This document shows, piece after piece, positions 1 through 12,845 of a DNA stretch of 39,540 bases. The stretch is from a plasmid: sequence record NZ_CP023509.1; one strand, written 5' to 3'. Position numbers and translations under genes: made by a program. Numbering within the stretch: position 1 is the first letter of the stretch; every line of letters begins with the position of its first letter. Below the pieces are notes generated by a model that saw only the letters and a list, made by a program, of their open reading frames with translations, was not told the DNA's origin and searched no databases.

Positions 1-199
1 GAGAAGTTCATGAATCGTTGAGTTGGGCCGCCCGGCATCTGCACGAAACAGATACCGGGCGGCTTCGCTGTGTAGGCACTAGGTGGGGTTTGGGAATTAT
101 GGGTGTGGCTGCGGGGCGGATACCCTGCATGATGTGGGTCTGAGAGGTTAAACTATGTGTAGGTCAATGCTAGAAAAACTTCCCGAAAGGAAAACTAAA

Positions 200-568
200 A
201 TGTCCCGTTCACCCCGTACCACCGCCGCCCGCCGTGCACGCGAAAAGGCGGAAGAAAACGGGCGCATCTTTAAAGAGCTCCAGGCTCGACTACATGCGCT
301 TGCAGTGGAATTTTTCACCCTCCAAGAAAGCACCCCGGCGGCAAAGATTGAGAACGAAATCGCCGCCAAAGAGAAGGAACTAGAGGCGCTGCGCGCCAAG
401 CGTGACGAAGCCCGCGAAGAAGCCCGGCGGGTACTCTCTGCACCGGTCGCGGCAATGGCCGCGCTCAATGAGCCGCCCGCAAACATTGCGCAACGCTTGG
501 GGCTGACCCGCGCGCAAGTAAACGGCCTGCTGCGCGTGCATAAGGAATCAGCCGAAACCGAAGATTAG
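200..568 (+). CDS. Coiled-coil protein with C-terminal helix-turn-helix (putative DNA-binding regulator). The ORF track starts at 155; the ATG at 200 has the better RBS.
   Basis: ORF 155..568. C-terminal stretch NIAQRLGLTRAQVNGLL looks like an HTH. The Ala/Glu/Lys/Arg-rich middle is a likely coiled coil. AAGGAAAA lies upstream of the ATG at 200. The gene ends at a long perfect palindromic terminator. Confidence 0.5.
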   Translation: MSRSPRTTAARRAREKAEENGRIFKELQARLHALAVEFFTLQESTPAAKIENEIAAKEKELEALRAKRDEAREEARRVLSAPVAAMAALNEPPANIAQRLGLTRAQVNGLLRVHKESAETED

Positions 569-574
569 GAACGC

Positions 575-629
575 GAAAGGGCGGCGGGGCTTCTCAGAGA
601 ATTTCTCTGAGAAGCCCCGCCGCCCTTTC
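575..629. terminator. Bidirectional intrinsic terminator (perfect ~25-bp inverted repeat)
   Basis: gaaagggcggcggggcttctcagaga att tctctgagaagccccgccgccctttc lies between the convergent genes 200..568(+) and 635..916(-). Confidence 0.7.
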
Positions 630-634
630 GTTGG

Positions 635-916
635 CTAGCTCTTAATCTTGACCGCCCAACCCGCTACGAAAGCCGGGTTATTAGGCTTCAGATTCGACCG
701 GCTGGCGACGATTACCCGGCACCCCGCGTCTTCCAGAAGCCGCAACATTTCGAGTTGCTGCTCTTGAAAGGTTCCCCCGCACCGTTGCGCCCATTCCGTG
801 AACTCCGTGATGAGTTTCTGGAGCCGGTCGGGGGTCGCCTCGTGACCGGTAACCTCCACCATTGGGTGATGAGTGTTAAGGCTCGCGTATCGCGTCCATA
901 CGTCATAAATTGCCAT
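635..916 (-). CDS. Hypothetical small protein, member of a five-copy ~90-aa paralog family (family A)
   Basis: 93 aa. Shares the EQQLEMLRLLEDAG..V..(G)W(A/M)VKF/TF C-terminal pattern with 985..1272, 1506..1787, 2523..2801 and 3033..3302. Lies immediately downstream of 985..1272 and is probably co-transcribed with it. Confidence 0.6.
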   Translation of the reverse strand: MAIYDVWTRYASLNTHHPMVEVTGHEATPDRLQKLITEFTEWAQRCGGTFQEQQLEMLRLLEDAGCRVIVASRSNLKPNNPAFVAGWAVKIKS

Positions 917-984
917 GTTGTGCCCTTCTGTCAGGTGGTGGGGCGGCGCATCATGCGCCGCCCCGTTGCTGGTGTGTCTAAGCT

Positions 985-1272
985 TTAGCCTTCGCTAAAG
1001 GTAATGGACCACTTAGCCGAAACGCCGGGCTTGGTGTAATCCGACTGGCTCGACATCACCACTACCCAACCTTCACGCTTGAGCTTGCACTCCATGACTT
1101 CGCGGTGCAGCTGTGCCGCCGCCGGAATGCCGACGCTAAAGCTTTCGCGGCAAACCTCCAACAGGCTACGCAAGCGGTCGGGAATCGGTGCCGGGCCGCT
1201 GAGGTTGAACGTCAGACGCTTAGTCTTCGGGGTGGTGCCGTAGTAACTTGCGGTGAGCTCGTACAGTGCCAT
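985..1272 (-). CDS. Hypothetical small protein, family A paralog
   Basis: 95 aa. The start codon is directly preceded by the conserved module (AGGAAUUAAUCAUCAUG). Confidence 0.6.
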   Translation of the reverse strand: MALYELTASYYGTTPKTKRLTFNLSGPAPIPDRLRSLLEVCRESFSVGIPAAAQLHREVMECKLKREGWVVVMSSQSDYTKPGVSAKWSITFSEG

Positions 1273-1440
1273 GATGATTAATTCCTAACTGATTCGCTGT
1301 CGGCTGCGCCGGTCGGCGCTACCGGTAAGGGTTTCGGGGTTTCCCTCCCCGTTCTTCCTTACACTTATAGTTTACCATATATGGAAGCATACAAACAAGC
1401 TGGAACGGTGGAAATTTCGAGGGAATTTCAGCGCGCCACC
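1273..1440 (-). promoter_or_regulatory. Conserved promoter + structured 5'-UTR module, copy 1. Sigma70-like TTGTTT-N18-TGgTAAACT, ~100-nt leader with two hairpins, SD AGGAA.
   Basis: Near-identical modules occur at 1788, 2802, 3303, 4585, 5585, 6261, 7852, 9664, 12117 (minus orientation) and 12241, 13640, 15000 (plus orientation). Core: ccttacacttatagtttaccatatatggaag...cttgttt. Confidence 0.6.
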
Positions 1441-1460
1441 GCACCGAAAAGCACGAAAGA

Positions 1461-1493
1461 GGGACGGCTCAGAGTTTCCTCTGAACCGCCCCC
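1461..1493 (-). terminator. Intrinsic terminator of 1506..1787 (conserved GGGACGGCTCAGAG/CTCTGAACCGCCCC hairpin)
   Basis: Imperfect GC hairpin immediately 3' of the gene. Same sequence family as the terminators at 2482 and 2985. Confidence 0.5.
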
Positions 1494-1505
1494 TGACCGC
1501 TTCGG

Positions 1506-1787
1506 TTAGTCGGTGAACGTCACCATCCAATGACCGTTTACCGGCTCGGTGTGTTCGGCTCCAAACGTGGAGGTCGTGCGAATAATCTTAAACCCCGCTT
1601 CTTCGAGCAAGCGCACCATTTCGAGGTTTTGCTCTTGCGGGCTACGGAAGCACTTAAGATAGGTCATCGTAGACCCCTCCAGCACCTTATAAACAGCTTC
1701 CACGCCGGGCGCCTGAGTCACGCCAATACGCACGCTCGCCTTATCGCCCTCGTCGGTGTAGATTGCCTTGAGGTGGAAAGTAGACAT
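1506..1787 (-). CDS. Hypothetical small protein, family A paralog
   Basis: 93 aa. PQEQNLEMVRLLEEAGFKII...NGHWMVTF is almost identical in pattern to 3033..3302. Has its own module copy upstream. Confidence 0.65.
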   Translation of the reverse strand: MSTFHLKAIYTDEGDKASVRIGVTQAPGVEAVYKVLEGSTMTYLKCFRSPQEQNLEMVRLLEEAGFKIIRTTSTFGAEHTEPVNGHWMVTFTD

Positions 1788-1950
1788 GATGTTGTTTCCT
1801 TACTGATTTGCTGTTCGGTGCCGCCGGTCGGCTGCACCGGTAGGGGTTTGGGTTGCTGTCCCGTGTTTTCCCTACACTTATAGTTTACCACATATGGAAG
1901 TGAGAAAACAAGGTGAGACGGCGGAACTTTTGAGGGAATTTCACCGCACC
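1788..1950 (-). promoter_or_regulatory. Conserved promoter/5'-UTR module, copy 2
   Basis: catgatgttgtttccttactgatttgctgttcggtgccgccggtcggctgcaccggtaggggtttgggttgctgtcccgtgttttccctacacttatagtttaccacatatggaag... Confidence 0.6.
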
Positions 1951-1967
1951 CTCTGCACGATAACCCC

Positions 1968-2471
1968 CTAGAATAGCTGGGTTTGTCCTTCCATGACGAT
2001 ACCGCGCCCCAAACGGTCTACAGCCTCTTGGCTGTAGCCGTGCTCTAACACAAAGTCCCGAAGCTCTCGCGCGTCAGCGGCGCGCTCTGCTCTGCTGCGC
2101 CGTAGGAAAACGTGACCGTGCAGGTTGTCCCTTCCGCGCGCGGCACGCTCGCGCATATTGTCCGCGTGGTTGCCCAAGAATAGATGTGAAAGCGCGCCGC
2201 TCTCAGCCCTGACACATAGGGGGTTATCGCAAAGGTGCGTTACCATTTCGGCGGCCTGCACGTCCTCCAGTCCGAACGCGGCGGCGGCGGCGTAGCGGTG
2301 TGCGCGCCACATGATGAACCCTTCCGGGGTGTCGCGATCTTTGACCCAAAATCTACCGTAGCCGTCCGCACCTATCGCGCCCGTCCAGACCCAACACGCG
2401 CCGGGCGCCTGTCCCTTAATCACTTTGTCCCAAAATCGGTTAGTCGCTGCACTGTCCATCATGGACAGCAT
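1968..2471 (-). CDS. HNH homing-type endonuclease (free-standing, phage-like HNH_3 family)
   Basis: 167 aa. CWVWTGAIGADGYGRF matches the N-terminal HNH_3 motif. THLCDNPLCVRAESGALSHLFLGNHADN matches CDNxxCVNPxHLxxGTxxDN. The gene has no module copy. It is wedged between the terminator of 2523..2801 and the module of 1506..1787. Confidence 0.8.
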   Translation of the reverse strand: MLSMMDSAATNRFWDKVIKGQAPGACWVWTGAIGADGYGRFWVKDRDTPEGFIMWRAHRYAAAAAFGLEDVQAAEMVTHLCDNPLCVRAESGALSHLFLGNHADNMRERAARGRDNLHGHVFLRRSRAERAADARELRDFVLEHGYSQEAVDRLGRGIVMEGQTQLF

Positions 2472-2481
2472 GATACGCCAC

Positions 2482-2515
2482 AGGGGCGGCTCAAGGTTTC
2501 CCCTGAGCCGCCCCT
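2482..2515 (-). terminator. Intrinsic terminator of 2523..2801 (perfect 12-bp stem AGGGGCGGCTCA/TGAGCCGCCCCT)
   Basis: GC hairpin immediately 3' of the gene on the minus strand. Confidence 0.65.
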
Positions 2516-2522
2516 ACATTAC

Positions 2523-2801
2523 TTATGCGCCGTGAAATTTAATCATCCAGCCGGTGATGAATCCTTCACAGGTAACCTGCCTTGAAAATTCGGGTACGTA
2601 ATTCGCTTCGAGAATCAGCTCTAGCATAATGTTCAGATGCTCACTCGCCGGAACCTTTACCGCCTGCATCCGCTTCCTATACCGCTGAACCATGTCGTTA
2701 ACATTTTCGGGAATCGGTGCGTCGCTTTCAATACTGAGTGAAACCCCGACCTCCCCACGGGGGTTAGGGGTGTACAGGGTCTTAATGAAAAACGGTTCCA
2801 T
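2523..2801 (-). CDS. Hypothetical small protein, family A paralog (most divergent)
   Basis: 92 aa. Ends ...CEGFITGWMIKFHGA. Module copy upstream. Confidence 0.55.
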   Translation of the reverse strand: MEPFFIKTLYTPNPRGEVGVSLSIESDAPIPENVNDMVQRYRKRMQAVKVPASEHLNIMLELILEANYVPEFSRQVTCEGFITGWMIKFHGA

Positions 2802-2968
2802 GATGTTGTTTCCTAACTGATTTGCTGGGCGGTGCCGCCGGTCGGCTGCACCGGTAGGGGTTTGGGTTGCTGTCCCGTGTTTTCCCTACACTTATAGTTT
2901 ACCACATATGGAACCATGAAAACAAGGTGAGGGCGGCGGATTCTTCGAGGGAATTTCAGCGCGCCAGG
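2802..2968 (-). promoter_or_regulatory. Conserved promoter/5'-UTR module, copy 3
   Basis: Near identical to copy 2. Confidence 0.6.
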
Positions 2969-2984
2969 TGTGCCAGAAAGTGCA

Positions 2985-3019
2985 AGGGGGCGGCTCAAGG
3001 TTTCCCCTGAGTCGCCCCT
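2985..3019 (-). terminator. Intrinsic terminator of 3033..3302 (same sequence family as 2482..2515)
   Basis: gggggcggctca aggtttcccc tgagtcgcccct. Confidence 0.6.
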
Positions 3020-3032
3020 GTGGTTGCTTCGG

Positions 3033-3302
3033 TTAGCCCGCGAAGGTCACCGCCCAATGACCGTTTACCGGGTCGTGCTGCTCTGCTCCAAATGTGGAGG
3101 TCGTGCTAACAATCGTGAAGCCCGCCCGCTCCAGCATCCAGAGCATTTCTAGGTTTTGCTCTTGCGGGGTATCGAAGAATTTAATGTAGCTCTTGGCTTC
3201 TTCCAATAGGGGGGTGAAGGCTTCCGCGCCGGGTGCTTCCTTCATGGCAAGCTGTACCCCTGCATTGTCGGCGTAGTTGCCCTTGAGCGTGAAAGTGGAC
3301 AT
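3033..3302 (-). CDS. Hypothetical small protein, family A paralog
   Basis: 89 aa. TPQEQNLEMLWMLERAGFTIVSTTSTFGAEQHDPVNGHWAVTF. Confidence 0.65.
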   Translation of the reverse strand: MSTFTLKGNYADNAGVQLAMKEAPGAEAFTPLLEEAKSYIKFFDTPQEQNLEMLWMLERAGFTIVSTTSTFGAEQHDPVNGHWAVTFAG

Positions 3303-3450
3303 GATTTCATTTCCTAACTGATTTGCTGTTCGGTGCCGCCGGTCGGCTGCACCGGTAAGGTGTTCGGGGTTTCCCGCCCCGATTTATCCTTACACTTATA
3401 GTTTACCATATATGGAAGCGTGTAGGTAAAGTGGGGCGGTAAAAATCCCG
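3303..3450 (-). promoter_or_regulatory. Conserved promoter/5'-UTR module, copy 4
   Basis: catgatttcatttcctaactgatttgctgttcggtgccgccggtcggctgcaccggtaaggtgttcggggtttcccgccccgatttatccttacacttatagtttaccatatatggaag. Confidence 0.6.
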
Positions 3451-3512
3451 CAAAAAAGGGCGGCCCACCCCCACACAGGGGCGAACCGCCTTAGCGCCCC
3501 TCAGAGGCTCAT

Positions 3513-3917
3513 CTAGAACACATGCGCGAGAAGCTGCACCATCAGCGCCACGCCACAGAAGACCGCCAGAATCCCCGCAAAGACCCCGCCAAAAACCGCC
3601 GCTTCGCCGCCTGAATCCTTCGCCTTCTTAATCGATCGCTTCCCGCCCATGATGAGCAAAACCACGAAAGGAAGCGCAACGGAAATATACGCCATATACC
3701 CTATATGTGCGCCCTCTAGGGGGTCTTGATTCGATTGACTCATCATCAGCGGCGCGACAATAACCAAAGCCTCGAAGACAAACACACCGAAGACCGTAGC
3801 GGCAAAATAGGGCGCTTCCTGGCGTAGATGCTGGCGGGGAATTGCCAGAGCCCACACCACGCTATGCCCCATGAGAGCTATGACCGTAAACAGCAGCAGA
3901 GCCGGAAGATGTTCCAT
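3513..3917 (-). CDS. Small integral membrane protein (4 predicted TM helices)
   Basis: 134 aa, hydrophobic throughout. SD AAGGAAAA upstream. No module of its own. Follows the terminator of 4003..4584. Confidence 0.55.
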   Translation of the reverse strand: MEHLPALLLFTVIALMGHSVVWALAIPRQHLRQEAPYFAATVFGVFVFEALVIVAPLMMSQSNQDPLEGAHIGYMAYISVALPFVVLLIMGGKRSIKKAKDSGGEAAVFGGVFAGILAVFCGVALMVQLLAHVF

Positions 3918-3951
3918 GATATGTTTTCCTTTGCTTGTGGTTGGAGATGAA

Positions 3952-3982
3952 GGGGGAAACCGGAATGTTCCGGCTTCCCCCC
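3952..3982 (-). terminator. Hairpin terminator downstream of 4003..4584
   Basis: gggggaaaccgg aatgtt ccggcttccccc. Confidence 0.45.
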
Positions 3983-4002
3983 GCTTTCTGTGTGCTAAGC
4001 GA

Positions 4003-4584
4003 CTAGCTCAGCGCTTCGGTCGAAACCCCTAAGTCCTGAGCGAGGCGGGCGATAAACTTACGCGCCGGAACAAGCTTAGCGGTGCCGTATTCCTGCTTGA
4101 GGGCGTAGCGGGCGTATGCCTTCACGTTCTTACGGGTTACCGCCACGGGTTCGGCGGTTGCTTCGTCCAGCTTTCCCCACGGGTCGAACTCGTCATCTTC
4201 AAAGTCAAACCATACGGTGCGCGGGGCGGTAATTGCCTCAGACGGGCACCCGTTCCATGCCATGTAAACATCTTCGGTCAGCGGCACCTCCGGGGCTGCG
4301 TAGAGCTTTTCCCCGCTGGCACGGGTGCCGTTGGTGACAAGCTCACAGAACGGGTCAATGAACGGGGTCACAAGCTCCTCAATGATGGAGATGATGCCCT
4401 CCAGGGTACCCACCCCAAGGTAGGTTTTTTGTGCCGGAAGCCACGGGTTCGAGTCTGCAAACTCGCCCATGCGAAGAATTGCCGGGCGGTCGCACCACAG
4501 GGCGTAGGGCTTACCGCCGTTCTTCTCGATTTCCTCCACCTCGCGGGTGATAGCGGTGATGTCTGCGCCGGTCATCTTTGCCAT
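4003..4584 (-). CDS. Hypothetical protein, paralog of 11514..12116 (family B)
   Basis: 193 aa. Shares GGKPYA...SGEKLYAAPEVPLTEDVYMAWN with 11514..12116. C-terminal EPVAVTRKNVKAYARYAL resembles the PLPVTxENV motif of family C. Module copy upstream. Confidence 0.6.
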   Translation of the reverse strand: MAKMTGADITAITREVEEIEKNGGKPYALWCDRPAILRMGEFADSNPWLPAQKTYLGVGTLEGIISIIEELVTPFIDPFCELVTNGTRASGEKLYAAPEVPLTEDVYMAWNGCPSEAITAPRTVWFDFEDDEFDPWGKLDEATAEPVAVTRKNVKAYARYALKQEYGTAKLVPARKFIARLAQDLGVSTEALS

Positions 4585-4750
4585 GATGTTTGTTTCCTAA
4601 CTGATTTGCTGTTCGGTGTCGCCGGTCGGCTGCACCGGTAGGGGTTTGGGGGTTCCGCCCCGTTCTTCCTTACACTTATAGTTTACCACAAATAGAAGAA
4701 TACAAACAAGCTGTGGCGGTGGAAAATCTAGAAAAAATCCCCCTGCAAAC
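4585..4750 (-). promoter_or_regulatory. Conserved promoter/5'-UTR module, copy 5
   Basis: Module sequence with -10 variant TATTTGTGGTAAACT. Confidence 0.55.
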
Positions 4751-4828
4751 ACCCCGCTGTGGCACGCATTTCATGGCATAAGCTAGGCCCCCTCCCCCTC
4801 ACAGGAAGAGAGCCTAGCTCACTGTGTG

Positions 4829-5584
4829 CTAACCCTCGACCGGGTTCAGCTCCACGCGCCAATCATAGGTTGGGTTCTCCCACCGCACGATACGTTCAGC
4901 GAAGCGGCGCACGTTCTCCACGGTCACAGGCAACGGGTGAATGTGTCGCCAGACCGGGGCCGGGCTGTCCAGGGGTTCAAACTCGCGCATGGTGTCGTCT
5001 TCGTTGTGGCACATGCTCGGCTTGTCGGTGAACCACTTCCAGGCGGCCATGTTCTTACCTTCTTCATGGCTAAACATTTCTTCCGGGGTGCAGAAGCGGC
5101 ACAGTCCCCAATCTTCGAGCTGTTCGACCAATTCGGGAAGGGTGCCCGTCCACTGGCGGGCTTTATCGCCGTCTGCAAAGGCCTGTACTCGGTAGACCCG
5201 ATCGCTTCCCGCTGCGGCGGGCTCTGCGGTCATTTCAACGCTCCAGGGTTCCCCGTCGCTTGCCTCAGCGGTGATGTAGTGGACGTAATTTTCAACGTTC
5301 GCGCGGGTCACAGGCAACGGGTGAATGTGCGGAAAGAACTTACCGCCGCCGGGTGCCGGGCGACTGAAGGGGTAGGTTTCGGTCGCTTCCTCTTCGCTGA
5401 GGTCTTGGGGGCTGATTCCGCGGGCGCGGTCAGTGAACCATTCCCACCCAATGCCCATAATGCGGCGGTTAAACGGCGCGTCCTGATTCTTCTGTGCCCA
5501 CTGCACAATGTCGGCCAGGGTGCCGGCGTATTCGGTGATGGTTTCGCCAATGGTGGCGCGAATGGTAAACAGCTGGTAAGTCAT
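4829..5584 (-). CDS. Hypothetical protein with internal tandem duplication, family C (PLPVTxENV motif)
   Basis: The ORF track runs to 5635, but the conserved leader places the start at the ATG 5582-5584 (MTYQLF...), giving ~251 aa. Two repeats each carry WxWFTD and HPLPVT(R/V)(A/E)NV motifs. Homologous to 5808..6260. Confidence 0.6.
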   Translation of the reverse strand: MTYQLFTIRATIGETITEYAGTLADIVQWAQKNQDAPFNRRIMGIGWEWFTDRARGISPQDLSEEEATETYPFSRPAPGGGKFFPHIHPLPVTRANVENYVHYITAEASDGEPWSVEMTAEPAAAGSDRVYRVQAFADGDKARQWTGTLPELVEQLEDWGLCRFCTPEEMFSHEEGKNMAAWKWFTDKPSMCHNEDDTMREFEPLDSPAPVWRHIHPLPVTVENVRRFAERIVRWENPTYDWRVELNPVEG

Positions 5585-5750
5585 GATGTTATGTCCTTGT
5601 CTGATTTGCTGTTCGGTGCCGCCGGTCGGCTGCACCGGTAAGGTGTTCGGGGTTCCGCCCCGTCGTCCCTACACTTATAGTTTACCACATATGGAAGTAT
5701 ACAAACAAGCTGGAACGGCGGGGATTTTGGGGAAATTTCGCCCCGAAACC
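5585..5750 (-). promoter_or_regulatory. Conserved promoter/5'-UTR module, copy 6
   Basis: catgatgttatgtccttgtctgatttgctgttcggtgccgccggtcggctgcaccggtaaggtgttcggggttccgccccgtcgtccctacacttatagtttaccacatatggaag. Confidence 0.6.
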
Positions 5751-5807
5751 GGGCACGCAAAAAAGGGGGGCGGGCACATCATGTACCCACCCCCTAGAGC
5801 CTAGCTC

Positions 5808-6260
5808 TTAGAGAACTTCCCTCAGCTCAACCCCCCACCGTACAGAAGGGTCTTCCTTGGTCATGGTGTAGTGAACGTAGTTGCCGACATTCTCCACCGT
5901 GTGCGGCATGGGGATTACACGCCGCCATGAAATGACGGGGAAAATATCGCCATTATCAAGCTCCAACACCTGCACCCCTTCATCTGCTGTTTTATACAGC
6001 TGATGAACCATTCGACTGTTTGCCCCGAAGAGTTCCCGCACTTCCCGCACATAATCAGTGAACCATTCGTGGCACGTCACCCGCTCCTCTGTCCCGCGCC
6101 GGTAGGCAATGAATGGGCGAGAGAAGCGCACAATATTGTGTTGCTCCATCTGCTGCACAATGTCGGCCAGAGTGCCAGTCGTGACCTTCTCCCCGTCCTG
6201 TCCGTCCTTGGACAAGAAAACGCTGTAGACCCGATCGCTGGCTTCCTTGATGGTGTTCAT
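5808..6260 (-). CDS. Hypothetical protein, family C (single-repeat version)
   Basis: 150 aa. DRVYSVF..TGTLADIVQQME, WFTD and IPMPHTVENVGNYVHY match both repeats of 4829..5584. Confidence 0.6.
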   Translation of the reverse strand: MNTIKEASDRVYSVFLSKDGQDGEKVTTGTLADIVQQMEQHNIVRFSRPFIAYRRGTEERVTCHEWFTDYVREVRELFGANSRMVHQLYKTADEGVQVLELDNGDIFPVISWRRVIPMPHTVENVGNYVHYTMTKEDPSVRWGVELREVL

Positions 6261-6420
6261 ATTCAGCCCCTTCTGCTATGTGTCAGCCGCGCCTATTGGC
6301 TCAGCTGGTAAGGGTTCCAGGGTTTCCCTCCCCGGTCTGTCCTTACACTTATATTCTAGCACAAGTAGAAACGTATAAACAAGGTGGGGCGGCGGATTCA
6401 GAGCATAAAAAAGTTCCCCC
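6261..6420 (-). promoter_or_regulatory. Conserved promoter/5'-UTR module, copy 7 (diverged 3' part; -10 TAGAAT)
   Basis: ggtaagggttccagggtttccctccccggtctgtccttacacttatattctagcacaagtagaaacgtataaacaagg. Confidence 0.5.
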
Positions 6421-6482
6421 CTCGCATCATGCACAAGGGGGGAACCAGCAAATCAGTTAATGCAACTGTACCACGGGTAAGG

Positions 6483-6821
6483 TCAGAAGTCCAGCGGCAC
6501 CTCTGCACCGTAGCGCTCTTCCAGAATATCGAAGATTTCGCTGTAAATTTTCTGCACGCTCACGCCTTCTATTTCTGCGGCGCGGTCGACCAGAAACTTC
6601 TGTTGCTCAGTGCCGCGAATGGTGTAAATGGTGTACTTGATACCCTTGCGGCGGGCGATTGCTCGCGCTGTCGTATCCATTGCGCGGGTCTGCGCCGCCG
6701 CGTCGATATCGTGCTTCTCGCTCTTGGCCACAAAGTCCTCAGCGCGGCGAGAACCTGCGCGACGGGTGCCGCCTCGCCTCTGCTGCGCCTTCGCATTGAT
6801 TGCCTGTGCCATGATAGGCAC
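6483..6821 (-). CDS. Ribbon-helix-helix centromere-binding protein (ParG/ParB-type Ib-like) downstream of parA
   Basis: 112 aa. Basic, disordered N-terminal tail. C-terminal beta-strand (KYTIYTI) followed by two helices, an RHH pattern. SD AGGAGG. Stop and start lie 26 nt from parA. Confidence 0.55.
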   Translation of the reverse strand: MPIMAQAINAKAQQRRGGTRRAGSRRAEDFVAKSEKHDIDAAAQTRAMDTTARAIARRKGIKYTIYTIRGTEQQKFLVDRAAEIEGVSVQKIYSEIFDILEERYGAEVPLDF

Positions 6822-6847
6822 CTCCTAAAAGTCGTCGGGATCGGGTC

Positions 6848-7504
6848 TTACGCGCCCGCGTAGTCCAGAATTTCACTCGCCAATGCCTGCATTTCCTCGC
6901 TGGCCTGCTCAGTGCGGGCGCGCTGCTCTACCACGCCCCGGCCTTCTTTCAGAGCGTCGGGGTAAATGCGGCGATTGAAAATTACCGCGTCCGCTAGCGC
7001 GAAGTCTTCCGGGCTGTCTTCCAGCGCGGCGATAGCCACGTCACGGTGCTTGCTCCTGGGGTGAGTGGACGCGCGCGTAATGACCACCAGCATTTTCAGC
7101 GCTTCGTTGATGATGCGTGCTTCGTCCATACGGGCGAGAAAATCTTTCGTGCTGTCCAAATCGGGCTTGTCGGCGTTGGTCGGAATGACAAGCACGTCAG
7201 AGACTAGGGCTGCGGTGCGCAATTCGAGCGAATCCTTACCCGCCGTGTCTACTAGCACAAGGTCGTAAGCCTGCTCCAGGCCTTCGAGCGTGACATTCAG
7301 CCTGTCGGTCTTCCGTAGGACGGTGACCGGTGCCAGGTCGTCGTGTGCTTCGCGGCGTGCGGCCCATGTGGAGGACGTGTACACGGACGGGTCGGCCTCA
7401 ATGACGATGACGCGGTGCCCCGCGCGCTGATAGATTGCGGCGAGATTGACCGCGAGGGTGGATTTTCCGGTGCCGCCCTTGTGGCTGCCAATGGTGATAA
7501 TCAT
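6848..7504 (-). CDS. parA: ParA-family partition ATPase (small, type Ib)
   Basis: 218 aa. Deviant Walker A IGSHKGGTGKST. Aspartates at VIVIEADP and LVDTAG. Confidence 0.9.
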   Translation of the reverse strand: MIITIGSHKGGTGKSTLAVNLAAIYQRAGHRVIVIEADPSVYTSSTWAARREAHDDLAPVTVLRKTDRLNVTLEGLEQAYDLVLVDTAGKDSLELRTAALVSDVLVIPTNADKPDLDSTKDFLARMDEARIINEALKMLVVITRASTHPRSKHRDVAIAALEDSPEDFALADAVIFNRRIYPDALKEGRGVVEQRARTEQASEEMQALASEILDYAGA

Positions 7505-7520
7505 GATTTTCTGCTCCTTC

Positions 7521-7568
7521 TGATGCAGTCATTGCATAATGCAATGATAGCACTCTGCAATGATAGCA
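7521..7568. promoter_or_regulatory. parA promoter-operator region: palindrome TCATTGCATAATGCAATGA plus two direct repeats TGCAATGATAGCAC
   Basis: Sits immediately upstream of the parA start. The palindrome core matches the long palindromes at 17566 and 18681. Confidence 0.55.
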
Positions 7569-7596
7569 CGGCGTACGTGCTTGTTGATCCGAAAGT

Positions 7597-7640
7597 GTTT
7601 AGACTTCCCCCTCTCGCATGGGCGAGAGGGGGAAGTCTAA
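7597..7640. terminator. Bidirectional terminator (20-bp perfect stem)
   Basis: tttagacttccccctctcgc atg ggcgagagggggaagtctaaa lies 3' of 7648..7851. Confidence 0.65.
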
Positions 7641-7647
7641 AGAGGCC

Positions 7648-7851
7648 CTAGCGGGCGTTCTCTTCTACAATTTTCCAGAACTCATCTACGGTGACCTTGC
7701 AAGCGAACCCTTCATCAACATCACCGAGAACCTTCTCAGCGATTGCGTCAATGTCGAACTCTGCCCGTGCATCTTCCACGTCGCCATGCTCGATAGGTTC
7801 GATAATTTCGCGGAAAATTGCCTCATCAACGCGGCTGTACTTGCGGGTCAT
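7648..7851 (-). CDS. Small highly acidic protein (67 aa), unknown function
   Basis: About one third of residues are D/E (DEAIFREIIEPIEHGDVEDARAEFDIDAIAEK...). Has its own module copy and an SD GGAAGGA. Confidence 0.55.
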   Translation of the reverse strand: MTRKYSRVDEAIFREIIEPIEHGDVEDARAEFDIDAIAEKVLGDVDEGFACKVTVDEFWKIVEENAR

Positions 7852-8012
7852 TGTGTTTTCCTTCCATTGGAGTTAGTCAGTCCGTCCAGGATTGGGCGGT
7901 GCCGGTAAGGCTTCCGGGGTTTCCCTCCCCGGTTTGTCCTTACACTTATAGTGTACCACAAATAGAAGCATACAAACAAGCTGGAGCGGCGAAAAACCTA
8001 GAAAAAAATCCC
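7852..8012 (-). promoter_or_regulatory. Conserved promoter/5'-UTR module, copy 8 (-10 TACACT)
   Basis: gtaaggcttccggggtttccctccccggtttgtccttacacttatagtgtaccacaaatagaagcatacaaacaagctgg. Confidence 0.5.
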
Positions 8013-8030
8013 CCTGCTGCGGGTACATAA

Positions 8031-8073
8031 AAAGCTTCGGCACTGAACCTAATAGGTTCAGTGCCGAAGCTTT
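8031..8073. terminator. Bidirectional terminator (18-bp perfect stem, A/T flanks)
   Basis: aaagcttcggcactgaacct aat aggttcagtgccgaagcttt. Confidence 0.65.
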
Positions 8074-8075
8074 AA

Positions 8076-8900
8076 TGAAAGTCCCTTAACCCGTCACCGG
8101 GCTAAGGGAAATGTTAGGAAAGTTCCGCCCCATAAAAGTAACAGTACATTCCTCAATGAAAGCCCACCCCCTTGTGAGGGGGTGAGAAGGAAAGAAAGGG
8201 CGCTCCCGATATGTTCAAGAATCCCCCTCAATGAAAGCCCCGCAGCTTGTGTGGCTACGGGGAATGCGCATAGAGAATGAGGCTCCCATTATAAAAATGT
8301 TCGTCCCTCAATGAAAGCCCCGCACCCCCTGCCTGTAGCACACAACCACAGAGCGGTAAGGTGGGGGAATGAGAATCAAACAGTCGGCTTCTTCCCACAA
8401 AATTTCAATTCCTCAATGAAAGCCCCGCCACCGTAAGAGCAGCGGGGAAGAAGGCCACTGTAAAGCTCAAGATAACTTACAATGTCTGCCTCAATGAAAG
8501 CCCCTTAACCCGTCACCGGGTCAAGGGGAAGAGGAATAAGTGCAAGCACCCACCACGATAAGTTCCATTCCTCAATGAAAGTCCTTCCGCCCCACCAGCG
8601 GGGGCGAAGCGGAAGGAAAAGGGTGGAGGAGAAAAGCTCTTCCAACGAAAATATTCACTCCTCAATGAAAGCCCCGCCGCCCGCAAGCGGCGGGGAATAC
8701 ACATAGAGAAGGGCCTCCCGCTAGATAACGTTGATTCCTCAATGAAAGCCCCTTAACCCGGTGCCGGATTAGGGGAAAGAGAAGAAAGCAAATGCTCCCT
8801 GAAACTACTATTGGAGTCCTCAATGAAAGCCCGCCCCCTGCAAGGGGGGGCGAGAAAAGGGATAGCCTCGCAAAACTTAGCCACTTCCAAGGTTCCCTAT
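8076..8900. repeat. Tandem array of 10 structured units (73-104 bp each). Each unit has a conserved leader (CCTCAATGAAAGCCCC) plus a GC hairpin of variable sequence, then GGGGAA and a variable 30-45-nt tail.
   Basis: Unit starts at ~8076, 8151, 8224, 8306, 8410, 8489, 8570, 8660, 8737 and 8818. Hairpins differ in sequence but keep their pairing (for example ccccgccgc..gcggcgggg, ccccttaacccg..cgggtcaagggg, tccttccgc..gcggaagga). No conserved ORF. On the minus strand each hairpin is followed by CTTTCATTGAGG. Confidence 0.7.
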
Positions 8901-8988
8901 GCGGTTATGTTTTCAGTTTAACACTACCTCTGAAAGCGAGGCAAGCGTTTTCGTCACCAGCGAGTTTTCACCTTATCCCTGATGGGAA

Positions 8989-9663
8989 TTAGCGAATCCT
9001 GCGGTTCCGCGGCGGTTGCGCTGCGGCGCGAACTTCATTCACACAGATTTCCAGGCTATCGCTCTGCGAATCGGCGTAGGCGTAGGCATCAAGTTCATTA
9101 CCCATCATGGCCGCATAACTGTTCACGATGTAACCGTAGTACTTGGTGCAGTTAGGGACGTCGATTTCATGAACCCATCCCAACGTGTCACCTTCTTCAT
9201 TGCAGACCCTCCACAAGCCCGGCGGGCACGGGTCAACGTTGAGCGCGTAGAGATGTTCAGCTCGAAGAAGGCGAGTGTCGAACGGGTAGTCTCGCTCAAT
9301 CTGGCGAGAAAGCCAGCGTAGCCACTGCGCAAAGCTTTTCAGGAAACCCGCTTCCTGCCTCCGGTGCTGATCTTTGCGGATTTCTTCGGCTTCTCGCTCG
9401 AAAAATTCGATGACCTCATCAGCGGCGAAGAAAACGGTCGGGTGCTGGTCTTTGCTGTGAATGGTGATGCACTCTGCCTTCTCACCCAATGCTTCGGCAA
9501 TGGGGTTAGGGTCGCGGTCCATATTGAGCCAGAGCCTCTTCCCCCTGCTGCGAAAGTACCAACGGTTATCGAACGGCCCGTTCCCAAATGGTGAAGGCCC
9601 GGCAATGTGTGCCGAGTACGTGCGGCCCTTTTCCTTTCGAATGTACTTGATGCTGTGTGACAT
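8989..9663 (-). CDS. Hypothetical protein (224 aa)
   Basis: Long ORF with its own module copy and leader (cagaaggagaaacagcATG). No recognisable motif. Confidence 0.55.
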   Translation of the reverse strand: MSHSIKYIRKEKGRTYSAHIAGPSPFGNGPFDNRWYFRSRGKRLWLNMDRDPNPIAEALGEKAECITIHSKDQHPTVFFAADEVIEFFEREAEEIRKDQHRRQEAGFLKSFAQWLRWLSRQIERDYPFDTRLLRAEHLYALNVDPCPPGLWRVCNEEGDTLGWVHEIDVPNCTKYYGYIVNSYAAMMGNELDAYAYADSQSDSLEICVNEVRAAAQPPRNRRIR

Positions 9664-9800
9664 GCTGTTTCTCCTTCTGATTTGCTGTTCGGCTGCGCCG
9701 GGTTCGGTGCCGCCGGTAAGGGTTCCGGGGTTTCCCGCCCCGTGTTTTCCTTACACTTATATTCTACCATAAATTAAAGAATATAAGTAGGTTTCACCCC
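9664..9800 (-). promoter_or_regulatory. Conserved promoter/5'-UTR module, copy 9 (-10 TAGAAT)
   Basis: catgctgtttctccttctgatttgctgttcggctgcgccgggttcggtgccgccggtaagggttccggggtttcccgccccgtgttttccttacacttatattctaccataaatt. Confidence 0.5.
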
Positions 9801-9859
9801 CACAATTTCCCCAAAAAAATAAGCCCCCCACTCGCAAAGCGAGAGAGGGGCTGCACCTT

Positions 9860-10456
9860 CTAGCTACCGCCCTTGATGTGCCAGGTCACGTGCTCCTCAG
9901 AGCTAATCAGCCTGCACCGTCCACCGTGGCGGTGACGGTTCCCGTCATTGCGGAAATGACGGCGCGGACAGAATCGAGAGTGCCAAATCTCAGCGGTGAT
10001 GTAGGAATAATCCCGGTCGGACGGGACAATGTGAACAGCGGTTCGGTAGTTCTTTTTCAGGCCTGCGGGGTCACCGTCCCACCCCCAATCGCGCGGCCAC
10101 CAGTTCCCGTGCCGCTTGTCGAACTCAAAGGTCGATTCCTTGAGCTCTTCGCTGCCTGACACTCGCGTGCGAAGAACTACACGGGGCTTCTCATTATTGA
10201 TGTCTTCGACGGTCGGGTTCTTGATGATATCGTCACGGTTGATGAACTCGTTATGCTTCACGATTCCTTCAACCTCAACTCTCAGTTCGTCGTTGAGGTG
10301 TTCAACCTCCACGATCTTTTTGCACGTGATGCGAGGCCACAGAACCGTATCCCACAGTAACCACCACAGAGGGAGCACAAGCAAAGCGATAGCAATGCAG
10401 GTAACCCAGAACACCTCTGAGAGAGTGGCTACGTCTTTATCTAAAAGTGCAAGCAC
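9860..10456 (-). CDS. Membrane-anchored Cys/His-rich protein, family D paralog 1
   Basis: 198 aa. GTG start with SD AGGAGA. N-terminal TM helix. C-terminal VHIVPSDRDYSYITAEIWHSRFC...HRHGGRC...HVTWHIKG is shared with 14034..14609 and 15124..15771. Only a truncated module remnant lies upstream (10457-10500). Confidence 0.6.
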   Translation of the reverse strand: MLALLDKDVATLSEVFWVTCIAIALLVLPLWWLLWDTVLWPRITCKKIVEVEHLNDELRVEVEGIVKHNEFINRDDIIKNPTVEDINNEKPRVVLRTRVSGSEELKESTFEFDKRHGNWWPRDWGWDGDPAGLKKNYRTAVHIVPSDRDYSYITAEIWHSRFCPRRHFRNDGNRHRHGGRCRLISSEEHVTWHIKGGS

Positions 10457-10495
10457 TGTTTTCTCCTAACTGATTTGCTGGCGGCTGCGCGGCGG

Positions 10496-10672
10496 CTAAT
10501 GCAGAGCAACCATAAGTGCCAGATAGCCGGTGTCCACCGCCAAGAACGGCCAGAGCAGCCAGTACCAGGCCCCGCGCCGCAGCCCCCACCCACGGGCGAG
10601 GACAAAATACCACGGGGCAAGCAAGAACACCAGCGCGAGGACGAACAGCCCAATAACCACTAAAACTTTCAT
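10496..10672 (-). CDS. Very small membrane protein (58 aa; hand-translated, not in the ORF track)
   Basis: MKVLVVIGLFVLALVFLLAPWYFVLARGWGLRRGAWYWLLWPFLAVDTGYLALMVALH. SD AGGGAAAA. Lies between the 63-aa TM gene and the family D gene. Confidence 0.35.
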   Translation of the reverse strand: MKVLVVIGLFVLALVFLLAPWYFVLARGWGLRRGAWYWLLWPFLAVDTGYLALMVALH

Positions 10673-10678
10673 TTTTCC

Positions 10679-10870
10679 CTATTGCTCCCACTTAGAGGCC
10701 AAAAAAGCACAGTAGCAAAAGCCGACAAACAGCGCCGCCGCAAAAACCAGCCACACCGGATTCATAGAGCTTTTCTCCCCATCTTCCCCATTGGAGAGCC
10801 TTCCGAATAGGGCGGCGATTACAGCGAGCACAAGCACGATAGCCGCCAGCAACAAGAAGAAGCCGGTCAT
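10679..10870 (-). CDS. Small membrane protein (63 aa, 2 TM)
   Basis: Hydrophobic. Overlaps the upstream HTH gene by 4 nt (ATGA), which suggests translational coupling. Confidence 0.5.
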   Translation of the reverse strand: MTGFFLLLAAIVLVLAVIAALFGRLSNGEDGEKSSMNPVWLVFAAALFVGFCYCAFLASKWEQ

Positions 10871-11157
10871 TTCTTCTCGCTCTTGACTGCCACACCGTGC
10901 GGGCGGGGGGTACCGCTTTTATTCCAACCCCACGCTCGGGAATGCGGCGGGTTTTCCTCGCGCCAGTCCATCCAGCGGCGCGCCTCGGATTCGAGATAGC
11001 CCCAAGTGCTGCCCGTCAGTGAGGCGGGGTGAATGTCGCCCTTTTCTCGGGCGTTGTTCACCGTCCTAGTATCCACTCCGGCCATTGCCGCAACCTGTTT
11101 ACTGGACAAATACACGATGAACTTGCCCTCTTGTTCCTTCTTCTTTTTCTTTGCCAT
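10867..11157 (-). CDS. Lys-rich helix-turn-helix DNA-binding protein (excisionase/MerR-like HTH_17)
   Basis: 96 aa. LSSKQVAAMAGVDTRTVNNAREKG. N-terminal KKKKKEQE. Confidence 0.55.
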   Translation of the reverse strand: MAKKKKKEQEGKFIVYLSSKQVAAMAGVDTRTVNNAREKGDIHPASLTGSTWGYLESEARRWMDWREENPPHSRAWGWNKSGTPRPHGVAVKSEKK

Positions 11158-11281
11158 TGCTGGTATCCTTTCTTCTGCGTGTTTAACATGATTTCACGCC
11201 CTTCTGTCCCCCGCGTGTGGTGGGGGTTTCCCCCGGTGCCTGTTTCCCCCGTCCGTTTTTAGGCGGTGGCACCGGGGGCTT

Positions 11282-11500
11282 TCATTTTTGCATGAGCAAC
11301 GAAACGCCTAGAACGGGCACTATCACTACCGATAAGGCAAGCATCCAGAATATGGCTCCTAAGCCTGGCGGCGTGTATGGCGTGACTCCATCTTTGGTTT
11401 CAGACCAAATCGAGTACATATTCACAATCGCCACGAAAAGGTAGACAAGGATAAGTCCGCCGGTAGTGACCCCCTCAGCCGTGAGAGCAGCCAGTAGCAT
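11282..11500 (-). CDS. Small membrane protein (72 aa)
   Basis: Two hydrophobic segments. Immediately downstream of 11514..12116. Confidence 0.45.
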   Translation of the reverse strand: MLLAALTAEGVTTGGLILVYLFVAIVNMYSIWSETKDGVTPYTPPGLGAIFWMLALSVVIVPVLGVSLLMQK

Positions 11501-11513
11501 TAGCGCCGCCCTT

Positions 11514-12116
11514 TTAGTCCTGTTCGGTCTGCTGCGCGAAGTGCTCGGTCAGCTCTTCTAGTACCTGACGTGCCGGGATCAGCTCGATTCGCTCATCCTG
11601 ATACTGCGTGAACACTTCTTCGGTCATGTACACGCTCAGGTTCTCCACGGTCAGCGGAAGTGGTTCCGAATGAACAGTCAGGCGCTCCATATCTTCCCAT
11701 TCCTCACTGTGCGGGTTGCTCAGGTCGTCCTCGTCGGCGTAACCAGCATCCACAAGAACGGTTCGGGGGCCAGGCTCACCGGTTAGCTCATCGTGGTTCC
11801 ACCAGATGTAAACATCTTCCTTCACGGGGACAGAAGGTGCGGCGTACAGCTGCTCTCCTGAGTCACGGTGCCCGCCACTGATGGTCTCACAGAAGTCTTT
11901 CTGTGCCGGTTTCGGGTCGGACTGGAACCAATGCAGAATGTCCTCCAGAGTGCCGAACTCTTCCTTCCACAGGGTCTTGATGGTGTGGTCCCATGCCCAC
12001 GAATCACGCTCGGTGAAGACGACGGCGTAAGGCTTCTCGCCTGCCGCTTCCATCTTCTCGACAGTGCAGGTCAGGGCCTTCAGGTGGCGTTCTTCCACAT
12101 TCCAGGTGGTCGTCAT
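11514..12116 (-). CDS. Hypothetical acidic protein, family B paralog (also carries the family C C-terminal motif)
   Basis: 200 aa. GEKPYA...SGEQLYAAPSVPVKEDVYIWWN matches 4003..4584. EPLPLTVENLSVY matches family C. Module copy upstream. Confidence 0.6.
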   Translation of the reverse strand: MTTTWNVEERHLKALTCTVEKMEAAGEKPYAVVFTERDSWAWDHTIKTLWKEEFGTLEDILHWFQSDPKPAQKDFCETISGGHRDSGEQLYAAPSVPVKEDVYIWWNHDELTGEPGPRTVLVDAGYADEDDLSNPHSEEWEDMERLTVHSEPLPLTVENLSVYMTEEVFTQYQDERIELIPARQVLEELTEHFAQQTEQD

Positions 12117-12240
12117 GATGTTGTTTCCTTACTGATTCGCTGTTCGGTTGCACCGATTGGTACTACCGGTAAGGGTTTCGGGGTTTCCCTCCCCGGTTCA
12201 TCCTTACACCTATATTCTACCATACATAGAAGAAAATAAA
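12117..12240 (-). promoter_or_regulatory. Conserved promoter/5'-UTR module, copy 11
   Basis: catgatgttgtttccttactgattcgctgttcggttgcaccgattggtactaccggtaagggtttcggggtttccctccccggttcatccttacacctatattctaccatacatagaag. Confidence 0.55.
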
Positions 12241-12359
12241 AACCCGCTTTGCCTATTATTTTTTCACAATTCCCCCCGCTCAACCCCTTATTATATATTT
12301 CTACTTATGCTATAGTATAAGTAGGGGTAACCCCACCCCTTACAACCCCTGGAGGAACC
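12241..12359 (+). promoter_or_regulatory. Divergent promoter region for 12360..12845. Contains a module-like -10 core inside the palindrome TACTTATGCTATAGTATAAGTA.
   Basis: ctatagtataagtaggggtaacccc resembles the module core ggtagaatataagtgtaggg. SD GGAGG before the ATG. Confidence 0.4.
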
Positions 12360-12845
12360 ATGAACAACGACGACTACACCCTCACGATTACCACGGCATC
12401 AGGCGTAACGGCACACCTGACCGGCACCCTGGAAGAACTCTTTACCCGCGCGGCAGAAGAGCGTGAGGGCACGGTACACGTGCCCGACAACATGCACTAT
12501 TGCCTCCCCTCTTCGGTATGGGCTGATGATTACCACGACTTCATTCTTAATGAAAACGGTGAACTGGTGCAGCCGAAGGAACCGAGCGGCTGGGACGCTT
12601 TCGGCTACCGCCACTACGGCGAAGAAGAAGGTGACCACCCGGAAGACTCTACCGCCCGCCTGTTGAGCATCTACCGCGACATTCGCACTGATGATTTTGA
12701 TCTGGACGAGCTAGAGGATTTGACCCCGGATTATCGCGTGTGGGCACATGAGAAGCCCCTGCCGTACACCGCCGAAACTTTGTTGGAGTACGCCCGGTGG
12801 CTCTTTGGTGCCGGGGCGAATATTACCCTATCGCCTGCACCGTAA
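12360..12845 (+). CDS. Hypothetical acidic protein, distant family C member
   Basis: 161 aa. TGTLEELF and KPLPYTAETLLEYARW motifs. Confidence 0.55.
   Translation: MNNDDYTLTITTASGVTAHLTGTLEELFTRAAEEREGTVHVPDNMHYCLPSSVWADDYHDFILNENGELVQPKEPSGWDAFGYRHYGEEEGDHPEDSTARLLSIYRDIRTDDFDLDELEDLTPDYRVWAHEKPLPYTAETLLEYARWLFGAGANITLSPAP

Follow-up and report, generated by a model that had tools for sequence, protein, structure and literature searches.

The plasmid sequence NZ_CP023509.1, a stretch of 39,540 bp analysed here in full and called the window, represents a whole circular replicon; position 39540 runs directly into position 1 in the related contig L043. Positions 1273-1400 hold one of the window's 12 full copies of a ~125-nt unit, in which a promoter is followed by a leader of two hairpins and an A-rich tail. 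A 21-nt pattern covering the promoter and the start of the leader matches 12 times in the window, versus 0.00 matches expected.

Read in the gene sense, the unit is composed of a −35-like TTGTTT, an 18-nt spacer, an extended −10 of the form TGnTAnnnT (TGGTAAACT, TGGTAGAAT and the like), a near-invariant ATAAGTGTA, hairpin P1, hairpin P2, the tail, and the start codon. The outer stem of P1 (GUARGG/CCYUAC) encloses an inner GC hairpin, whose loop is often rGGGAAA, and P2 directly abuts P1. The tail, ~30 unpaired nt containing AGGA/GGAG as a Shine-Dalgarno sequence (SD), has 48% A and 12% U and is left unpaired in the fold of copy 1. The elements of this first copy are as follows:

1393-1398, minus: −35-like hexamer TTGTTT, 18 nt upstream of the −10, a putative promoter element
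1369-1377, minus: extended −10 TGGTAAACT; the pattern match covers 1357-1377
1325-1362, minus: hairpin P1 in the minimum free energy (MFE) fold, outer stem GUAAGG (1362-1357)/CCUUAC (1330-1325)
1351-1335, minus: inner P1 hairpin, CGGGG-AGGGAAA-CCCCG
1301-1324, minus: hairpin P2 in the fold, CGGUAGCGCC-GACC-GGCGCAGCCG, arranged as CGG-UA-GCGCC GACC GGCGC-AG-CCG
1273-1300, minus: unpaired A-rich tail, with SD AGGAA at 1286-1282 and the AUG at 1272-1270
1299-1289, minus: CAGCGAAUCAG, proposed target of a small RNA (sRNA), seed duplex −21.5 kcal/mol

Across 68 distinct upstream regions the promoter core is well kept: CTTGTTT is retained in most, TGnTAnnnT is present in every copy, and the near-invariant element follows it. 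From standard promoter spacing, the start site is predicted at the G of GUARGG (G1362 in copy 1), 7 nt after TAnnnT, so that the 5′ end of the transcript would lie within the P1 stem and be base-paired. The spacer holds a semi-palindrome, CCAYATRTGG. No repressor family for the shared promoters was recognised among the window proteins, apart from a weak HTH_17 protein at 10867-11157. In L069, a relative with five copies, one spacer and −10 variant peculiar to that plasmid is found in all promoters (…CTTTAGTCTGTGCTACAAT); this uniformity suggests either concerted evolution within the plasmid or a switched operator specificity.

The other full copies, each serving as promoter and leader of the gene named, are distributed over both strands:

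1788-1911, minus: copy 2, gene 1506-1787
2802-2925, minus: copy 3, gene 2523-2801
3303-3429, minus: copy 4, gene 3033-3302
4585-4709, minus: copy 5, gene 4003-4584; two sense-strand A·C mismatches
5585-5708, minus: copy 6, gene 4829-5584; P2 inverted in the orthologue L022:551-645
6261-6382, minus: copy 7, gene 5808-6260; P2 fully recoded (CAGCUG.../...CGGCUG), tail without the sRNA site
7852-7979, minus: copy 8, gene 7648-7851; tail without the sRNA site
9664-9790, minus: copy 9, gene 8989-9663; promoter region palindromic
12117-12243, minus: copy 10, operon starting with 11514-12116
13672-13791, plus: copy 11, gene 13792-14001
15001-15123, plus: copy 12, gene 15124-15771

Partial versions of the unit occur as well:

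10457-10495, minus: tail-only copy, GCGCAGCCGCCAGCAAAUCAGUUAGGAGAAAACA-GUG, ahead of internal gene 9860-10456 and lacking both promoter and hairpins; seed duplex −23.7 kcal/mol
12290-12359, plus: short variant with the same promoter type and a single short hairpin, GUAGGGG...CCCCUUAC; gene 12360-12845
18613-18659: promoter-only copy

Terminator-like hairpins separate the cassettes. An earlier note on this DNA had described a structured leader of ~100 nt common to more than 10 genes. That description holds up: the leader is common to 12 genes, measures ~85-95 nt, and comprises two hairpins, whose compensatory changes are statistically supported.

Compensatory changes in the two hairpins

The outer P1 stems read in the earlier note are correct, with GUAGGG/CCCUAC in copies 2 and 3, GUAAGG/CCUUAC in copies 1 and 4, and GUAGGGUAAGGAU/AUCCUUAACCUAC in the plus-strand copy at 13704. 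Mixed copies, which it had missed, carry A·C (copy 5) or G·U (copy 6) at the covarying position. MFE folding yields two hairpins in 9 of 10 window copies and two top-level helices in all 67 distinct copies folded (67/67).

For comparison beyond the window, an exact-pattern scan of metagenome contigs provided ~15 related loci, 76-95% identical to the window, and more diverged elements were added through look-ups of ParA and of one cargo protein. RNAalifold on a plain MAFFT alignment recovered part of P2 alone; because indels in P1 had spoiled this result, the structure was supplied and a covariance model was built. With the structure supplied, the unfitted MAFFT alignment has 90.1% of its cells paired, versus 83.2% after shuffling and 29-47% with a slid partner, and both sides change in 9 of 20 pairs. 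The covariance model, a check that the earlier note had proposed, was built from this alignment and returned 122 strong matches in a pooled search of related Rothia-type elements. In the resulting alignment of 109 distinct copies, 92.3% of cells are paired (slid controls, 31-49%), and double changes occur in 13 of 20 pairs, covering 196 cells and including GC<->CG and GC<->UA exchanges. None of 500 shuffles of this 109-row alignment reaches any of the five measures.

The changes are spread over both hairpins. Pair 4 of the P1 outer stem covaries (AU 52, GC 29, GU 18, AC 9), double changes are found in all five P1 inner pairs, and both sides change in 6 of 9 P2 pairs. Because neighbouring sites in duplicated units are linked, a ranking by mutual information was added; it places the true partner 1st-3rd of ~105 columns for five P2 pairs, and 4th and 2nd for the covarying P1 pair. 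The shuffle, slide, fold and mutual information tests agree; selection, or else some pairing-dependent process, therefore maintains the helices.

Rfam returned no match over the whole window at gathering thresholds; relaxed to E≤5 over positions 1-16500, it gave chance microRNA matches on terminator hairpins and nothing else. Judged by sequence and predicted fold, the leader is a new sequence/structure family with >100 copies in Rothia mobile elements. The riboswitch-like element that the earlier note had offered as a candidate is not borne out, as Rfam stays silent even at E≤5, the helices and most loops vary, and no conserved unpaired core resembling a ligand pocket is seen in our reading of the alignments. 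A riboswitch expression platform was rejected too: no U-tract follows P2 and the SD is unpaired in the predicted folds, an alternative CCUUAC-SD pairing being present in one copy. An attenuator was discarded on the ground that neither hairpin is followed by a sense-strand U-tract. Integron attC or REP elements were likewise set aside, since the scanned window proteins contain no integrase or transposase domain and the palindromes lie between promoter and SD, not at cassette 3′ ends.

It is quite unlikely, in our estimate, that the hairpins form a platform for a trans-acting factor, be it a plasmid or host RNA-binding protein that controls translation or decay, or a put-like antitermination activity reading through the terminators between cassettes. 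The put RNAs of phage HK022 are two-stem RNAs that modify RNA polymerase for terminator read-through, and the likeness is one of architecture, two adjacent stem-loops being placed immediately 3′ of the promoter. The inner loop rGGGAAA, kept on differing stems (GGGG/CCCC, GGAU/AUCC, GAGG/CCUC), would suit such a platform, as would the terminator-like hairpins between cassettes and an internal copy without a promoter (L100:1349-1444). Every cassette, however, has its own promoter, which would make read-through unnecessary. There is no Rfam match of any kind, no recognisable RNA-binding protein among the window proteins, and little constancy in the P2 loops (GACC, AAUC, GCCC) or in several P1 inner loops (ACAGCAA, AUAGAUG).

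Matches to the promoter pattern in the genome collection were rejected as chance sigma-A-like promoters in unrelated low-GC organisms. L014, L035 and L060 are single promoters, and L076, from the viral collection and the only viral match examined individually, is the same contig as L060. A further unrelated match, L006:3500-4738 from an uncultured Clostridia, holds a tandem ~1-kb module that combines a strong promoter and a short structured RNA with a small hydrophobic open reading frame on the opposite strand, and resembles a type I toxin-antitoxin array.

A candidate small RNA opposite the tail

No part of the unit is conserved as widely as the tail, which is also found on its own, with no hairpins, ahead of internal genes and in a distant plasmid family. 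An invariant block located just after the partition operon is the perfect complement of the conserved tail CAGCAAAUCAGUUA(GGAA) as it stands in 9 of 13 ribosome-binding regions. A search with the tail core CAGCAAATCAG found one opposite-sense copy, at 6446-6456, within the following arrangement:

6406-6493, minus: candidate sRNA gene, recognised by the tail complement, a terminator and conservation
6493-6488, minus: −35 TGGACT, 17 nt upstream of the −10
6473-6465, minus: extended −10 TGGTACAGT, 4-5 nt upstream of the seed
6460-6446, minus: seed UUAACUGAUUUGCUG, 24 nt after the stop codon (6485-6483) of a parB-like gene
6446-6412, minus: terminator hairpin, 14 bp, GC-rich, strong and intrinsic, abutting the seed
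6411-6406, minus: U-tract of six U

The seed pairs perfectly over 11-16 nt with nine of the 13 regions, namely copies 1-6, 9 and 10 and the tail-only copy. The duplex energies lie between −17.8 and −23.8 kcal/mol, whereas the best values of shuffled seeds average −11.1. The pairing grows to 18-20 nt across the SD in other plasmid variants, where the bases upstream are UUCU. When targets were ranked among 40 gene starts tested, the eight best were all of the leader type. No other anti-leader site was found in the plasmid, and no second seed for the other tail type was found.

Comparison of nine plasmid variants revealed that the ~58-nt seed-plus-terminator block is essentially invariant, with two terminator columns varying in single variants. 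Right after the stop codon, 11 of ~25 positions vary, and the invariant upstream columns spell TG.TAC.GT. The 6406-6493 block is a candidate base-pairing sRNA with a 5′ seed, or else a functional 3′ untranslated region (3′-UTR) of the par operon. Base-pairing sRNAs, those derived from 3′-UTRs included, typically present a short 5′ seed followed by an intrinsic terminator and target ribosome-binding regions. The candidate would share with them the single-stranded seed, the terminator hairpin and the complementarity to target ribosome-binding regions. FinP-type sRNAs differ from it in being cis-encoded antisense to one leader; the candidate would be trans-encoded and would address about nine mRNAs via one repeated identical site. 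An sRNA had been among the mechanisms listed in the earlier note, and the complementary seed-terminator block lends that part substance, though what it supports is a role of the unpaired tail rather than of the hairpins.

Plasmid setting and cargo of the cassettes

Its nearest named proteins place the window in the Micrococcaceae, specifically Rothia, and it reads as a Rothia-type conjugative plasmid. ParA and the cell-wall hydrolase are 92% and 67% identical, respectively, to proteins of 'uncultured Rothia sp.', and one cargo protein shares 55% identity with a protein of Rothia mucilaginosa. Identity to proteins from Arthrobacter plasmids is 61-64% for the coupling protein, and RepA is 33% identical to a Rothia nasimurium plasmid RepA. 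No close relative of the first 12.4 kb was found in PLSDB or phage records by megablast/blastn; contigs of 35-40 kb with the same genes are present in many metagenome assemblies, whose sample names appear human. The plasmid functions recognised are:

33995-39019, minus: TrwC-type relaxase-helicase (domain match)
31137-32849: type IV coupling protein
23767-25314: RepA_C replication protein, with 22-bp iterons upstream
21908-23173: SLT+CHAP cell-wall hydrolase
6848-7504: ParA
27-99, plus: candidate core of the origin of transfer (oriT) upstream of the relaxase operon, an inverted repeat at 27-63 followed by the conserved GCTGTGTAGGCACTAGGTGGGG at 68-99

Segment 68-99 is kept in a distant 27-kb plasmid family, where it adjoins that family's relaxase. 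By analogy with MOBF plasmids, we take 27-99 to be the oriT and the + strand to be the transferred strand; 27-99 is accordingly a candidate oriT, with nick site and polarity assigned by the same analogy. On this assignment, the + strand would enter the recipient and positions ~100-13000 would form the leading region. The ten minus-strand cassettes (635-12116) point toward the candidate oriT and have the + strand as their template. If the + strand is the one transferred, 10 of 12 copies fit the orientation of a leading region, and two lie on the other strand. The cassettes thus probably occupy the leading region and would be templated by the transferred strand. Anti-defence genes of leading regions are typically templated by the transferred strand, the same orientation as that of the minus-strand cassettes (PMC11541004).

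None of the leader-driven proteins has a match in Pfam, PHROGs or NCBIfam, and all are orphans. The cargo proteins fall into about nine families with some paralogy, several of them very acidic; the AlphaFold model of a 200-aa acidic family (pLDDT 87) matched no fold in the PDB. Several otherwise unrelated small proteins (4829-6260, 11514-12116, 12360-12845 and 16008-16406) end in a PLPxTVENV-type C-terminal motif, and a second protein family (9860-10456, 14034-14609 and 15124-15771) has a common C-terminal ...VTWHI... domain. At 16420-17361 (minus), a 313-aa protein has an 89%-identical orthologue annotated as AcrVA2-like (PF26125, precomputed Pfam); a local Pfam search with the window protein gave no match. 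The Rothia mucilaginosa-type elements L098 and L099 carry the same leader together with a gene block comprising a homologue of the copy-10 gene, an HTH_17 protein, and proteins of 58, 198 and 224 aa; they differ in encoding an FtsK/SpoIIIE-family translocase and an M23/NlpC-P60 hydrolase.

Further repeats are distributed around the replicon. A probable replication origin at 23331-23492, upstream of repA, is marked by five to six iterons of 22 bp (GGTGGGGGGTTTAGCCGCGTTA) together with a DnaA-box-like TGTGGATAA. A long operator-like palindrome, ATGCAGTCATTGCATAATGCAATGACTGCAT, occurs at 7517-7568, 17551-17619 and 18674-18744, upstream of parA, the AcrVA2-like operon and gene 17605-18612, and a related palindrome stands in place of the hairpins in the 27-kb plasmid family. 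Between the copy 9 gene and the copy 8 promoter, upstream of the parA region, positions 8070-8860 (minus) hold an array of ~10 units spaced 75-105 nt apart, each made up of a variable GC-rich hairpin, then CUUUCAUUGAGG without variation, and a spacer that differs between units. Possible identities for the array are a partition centromere, a group of small RNAs, and stacked terminators. The 14000-16000 segment has a low GC content (0.42-0.49 vs ~0.56 elsewhere) and near-perfect 42-nt inverted terminator-like repeats at 14865-14906/15960-16001, and may be a recent insertion that brought copy 12. Perfect palindromes of 28 and 31 nt at 574-630 and 33238-33300, between convergent genes, are probably bidirectional terminators.

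Probable selection on the leader and its proposed role

The explanation we favour, tentatively and with slightly less than even confidence, is that the unit forms the front end of a self-contained expression cassette, which combines stabilising 5′ hairpins with a common sRNA target and serves probable leading-region genes. Its foundation is the repetition of the unit, the compensatory changes in its hairpins and the conserved complementarity between tail and seed. Since the leader follows a shared promoter, it is most naturally read as a cis-acting element of the mRNA. Transcription would start at the first base of P1 from an extended −10 promoter of actinobacterial type (TGnTAnnnT), and the 5′ end of the mRNA would be locked in P1, followed by P2 and the A-rich tail with its SD. 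The hairpins would act as 5′-terminal stabilisers that shield the mRNA from 5′-end-dependent RNases, rather than as a ligand sensor; such protection is established for the leaders of ompA, aprE and ermC and has been proposed for that of ardC on p576. The conserved tail CAGCAAAUCAGUUAGGAA would be the common target of the small transcript encoded just after the partition operon, whose pairing next to or over the ribosome-binding site may repress about nine genes together. Given the probable leading-region location and the transferred-strand template, establishment and anti-defence-type genes would be expressed strongly and early after transfer and later damped by the sRNA, to which a putative repressor at the shared promoter may add.

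A sharper version assigns the whole effect to one circuit: a single minimal sRNA, made from the partition operon or right behind it, would silence at least nine leading-region mRNAs via an identical 14-18-nt site, the hairpins would set basal stability, and the combination would work as a post-transcriptional timer confining establishment or anti-defence genes to the time right after conjugative entry. We regard this version as possible but doubtful. To our knowledge, a design of one sRNA with many identical targets is undescribed for conjugative plasmids.

Several observations weigh against the favoured explanation. Overall, A·C combinations come close to G·U in number (62 vs 79 in the large alignment, 42 vs 40 in the smaller set), a near-equality not typical of an RNA helix under strong selection. 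The fold of the antisense strand is 1.65 kcal/mol more stable than that of the sense strand, a difference judged uninformative because the sense loops are rich in A and C and the antisense loops hence in G and U. Distant plasmid families keep the tail without the hairpins, which would make the hairpins dispensable in principle; in families whose ParA is 72% and 52% identical, the two-hairpin leader was not found in the DNA examined. Nor is a role as an 'insulator' of the ribosome-binding site supported, since predicted accessibility is nearly equal in native sequences (0.618) and in sequences with the hairpin part shuffled (0.604). On the sRNA side, 4 of 13 tails (copies 7, 8, 11 and 12) are without the site, the tail-bearing relatives L088-L090 and L098-L100 show no anti-leader block within the DNA examined, and the 14-mer may be what is left of an inverted piece of leader.

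The earlier note had taken covariation as support for selection on RNA structure. Its compensatory changes are real; the step to RNA is weaker, as G·U only modestly exceeds A·C and covariation alone is no proof. The two mismatch classes are unevenly placed along the leader, with 24 G·U and 12 A·C in the P1 outer stem, 18 and 0 in the P2 terminal pairs, and about 30 and about 36 in the mismatch-tolerant middle of P2; the excess of G·U in the first two points to the mRNA. Split by gene orientation, the counts show no bias tied to plasmid strand. In the orthologue L022:551-645, P2 is exactly reverse-complemented relative to window positions 5582-5676 (GCAGCCGACCGGCGGC vs GCCGCCGGTCGGCTGC); by its sequence this is a small inversion of a DNA hairpin, and such flips would turn G·U into A·C.

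Unpaired positions, on the other hand, are strand-asymmetric in the sense direction (P1 loops, 58% A and 4% U; P2 loops, 8% U), and the opposite-strand copies at 13704 and 15033 keep the same sense-strand design. In the diverged relative L100, the fold is re-wired, with GUAGC/GCUAC closing a multiloop, and the predicted 5′ end is still paired. A-rich sense loops, copies on both strands and the re-wiring in L100 together favour the mRNA, and selection specifically on RNA is likely but not proven. Pairing of the predicted 5′ end is the common denominator of the variants, from the L100 multiloop to the single 5′ hairpin at 12290.

That the palindromes act as DNA, either as single-stranded hairpins on entry (promoter, priming site or nuclease protection) or as duplex operators, we consider very unlikely. 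Such a role would suit cassettes in a probable leading region templated by the probable transferred strand, the near-symmetry of G·U and A·C, the P2 flip by DNA inversion in one orthologue, and the −10 region of copy 9, which lies within an 11-bp local palindrome. Hairpin-forming Frpo/ssi sequences stand upstream of genes templated by the transferred strand in F-like and IncI leading regions (PMC11541004). In the present unit the −35 and −10 boxes lie outside the hairpins, whereas Frpo rebuilds them as duplex DNA within a long hairpin of the transferred strand. Folding of the template-strand DNA of all 12 copies did not rebuild them as duplex; they are unpaired in 11 of 12 copies, the exception being copy 9 with its local palindrome across the −10, and a duplex promoter of the Frpo kind would therefore not form. 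The same leader is carried by two copies on the other strand. The promoter hairpin active in single-stranded DNA that the earlier note had put forward is not supported. A DNA-level role is further opposed by the strong strand asymmetry of the loops in the mRNA sense, by helix sequences too variable for a protein operator, and by the presence of the same leader in the Rothia element with an FtsK/SpoIIIE-type translocase.

A further alternative, unlikely in our view, is that the hairpins are functionless hitch-hikers on a useful promoter and ribosome-binding module spreading through recombination among its copies, their complementarity being kept by template switching between quasi-palindrome arms and by hairpin flips and the 14-mer being a relic of an inverted leader. 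The copies are indeed mosaics of P1, inner hairpin, P2 and tail variants with the recombinant-type mismatches A·C and G·U similar in frequency, promoter spacers are homogenised in a plasmid-specific manner (as in L069), a P2 inversion is observed, and the tail is used without hairpins by distant families and internal genes. The block in the par 3′-UTR also resembles a reverse-complemented leader for a few bases beyond the 14-mer. Passive carriage accords poorly with 13 helix positions that change on both sides, always to Watson-Crick or G·U and including transversion pairs (GC<->CG, GC<->UA), or with a two-hairpin architecture found in 109 of 109 distinct copies and re-wired in L100. Nor would it explain loops that are A-rich in the sense strand only, or an anti-leader block that is invariant amid varying neighbours and placed exactly between an extended −10-like element and a terminator.

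The favoured reading, a stabilised leader with a possible sRNA site, has partial counterparts in known systems. Upstream of several leading-region genes, the IncN plasmids pKM101/R46 repeat a promoter-bearing sequence, the CUP element, which unites them in one regulon under ArdK, according to a later account (PMC6289460, citing Delver & Belogurov 1997). The present unit is like the CUP/ArdK and Reg576 regulons in repeating the same promoter-bearing sequence before leading-region genes, here in 12 copies. It is set apart from CUP by its occurrence in Micrococcaceae rather than Enterobacteria and by the lack of a recognised ArdK-like repressor. What defines CUP is a DNA repressor site; the hallmarks of the present unit are a transcribed leader with two covarying hairpins and possibly an sRNA site.

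In Gram-positive bacteria, the conjugative Bacillus plasmid p576 uses several sigma-A extended −10 promoters to drive small orphan and anti-restriction genes opposite to the transfer genes (PMC6294495). The leader of ardC576 contains inverted repeats predicted to fold in RNA, and deletion of the 75 bp upstream of the ardC start codon, inverted repeats included, halves expression on p576, which its authors credit to transcript stability (PMC6294495). Promoters of p576 have in common a heptamer operator recognised by a ribbon-helix-helix repressor, and a structured leader is present at only one of the four (PMC6294495); in the present plasmid the structured leader itself is repeated, in 12 copies, and no operator or repressor was recognised. 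The 5′ stabiliser stem-loops of ompA, papA, aprE and ermC, as covered by the references in PMC3997798, place a hairpin at or near the 5′ end, followed by an accessible ribosome-binding site. Those stabilisers are single-gene elements with measured effects on half-life, whereas the present leader has two hairpins, precedes many genes, and owes its 5′-end position to a prediction from promoter geometry. Unless the one-sRNA circuit proves real, the system is a variant of known leading-region regulons.

What is understood of how establishment and anti-defence genes are timed after plasmid entry comes mainly from enterobacterial plasmids, with their single-strand promoters and repressor regulons, and from one Bacillus family. 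Rothia is an abundant oral actinobacterium, and its plasmid family offers a compact, testable alternative module. If the proposed reading is true, it would add a new structured RNA family with >100 known copies and a new logic of coordinated post-transcriptional control on plasmids. It would also provide a ready-made strong expression module for Actinomycetota, and would single out about a dozen orphan proteins as candidates for a part in establishment or anti-defence.

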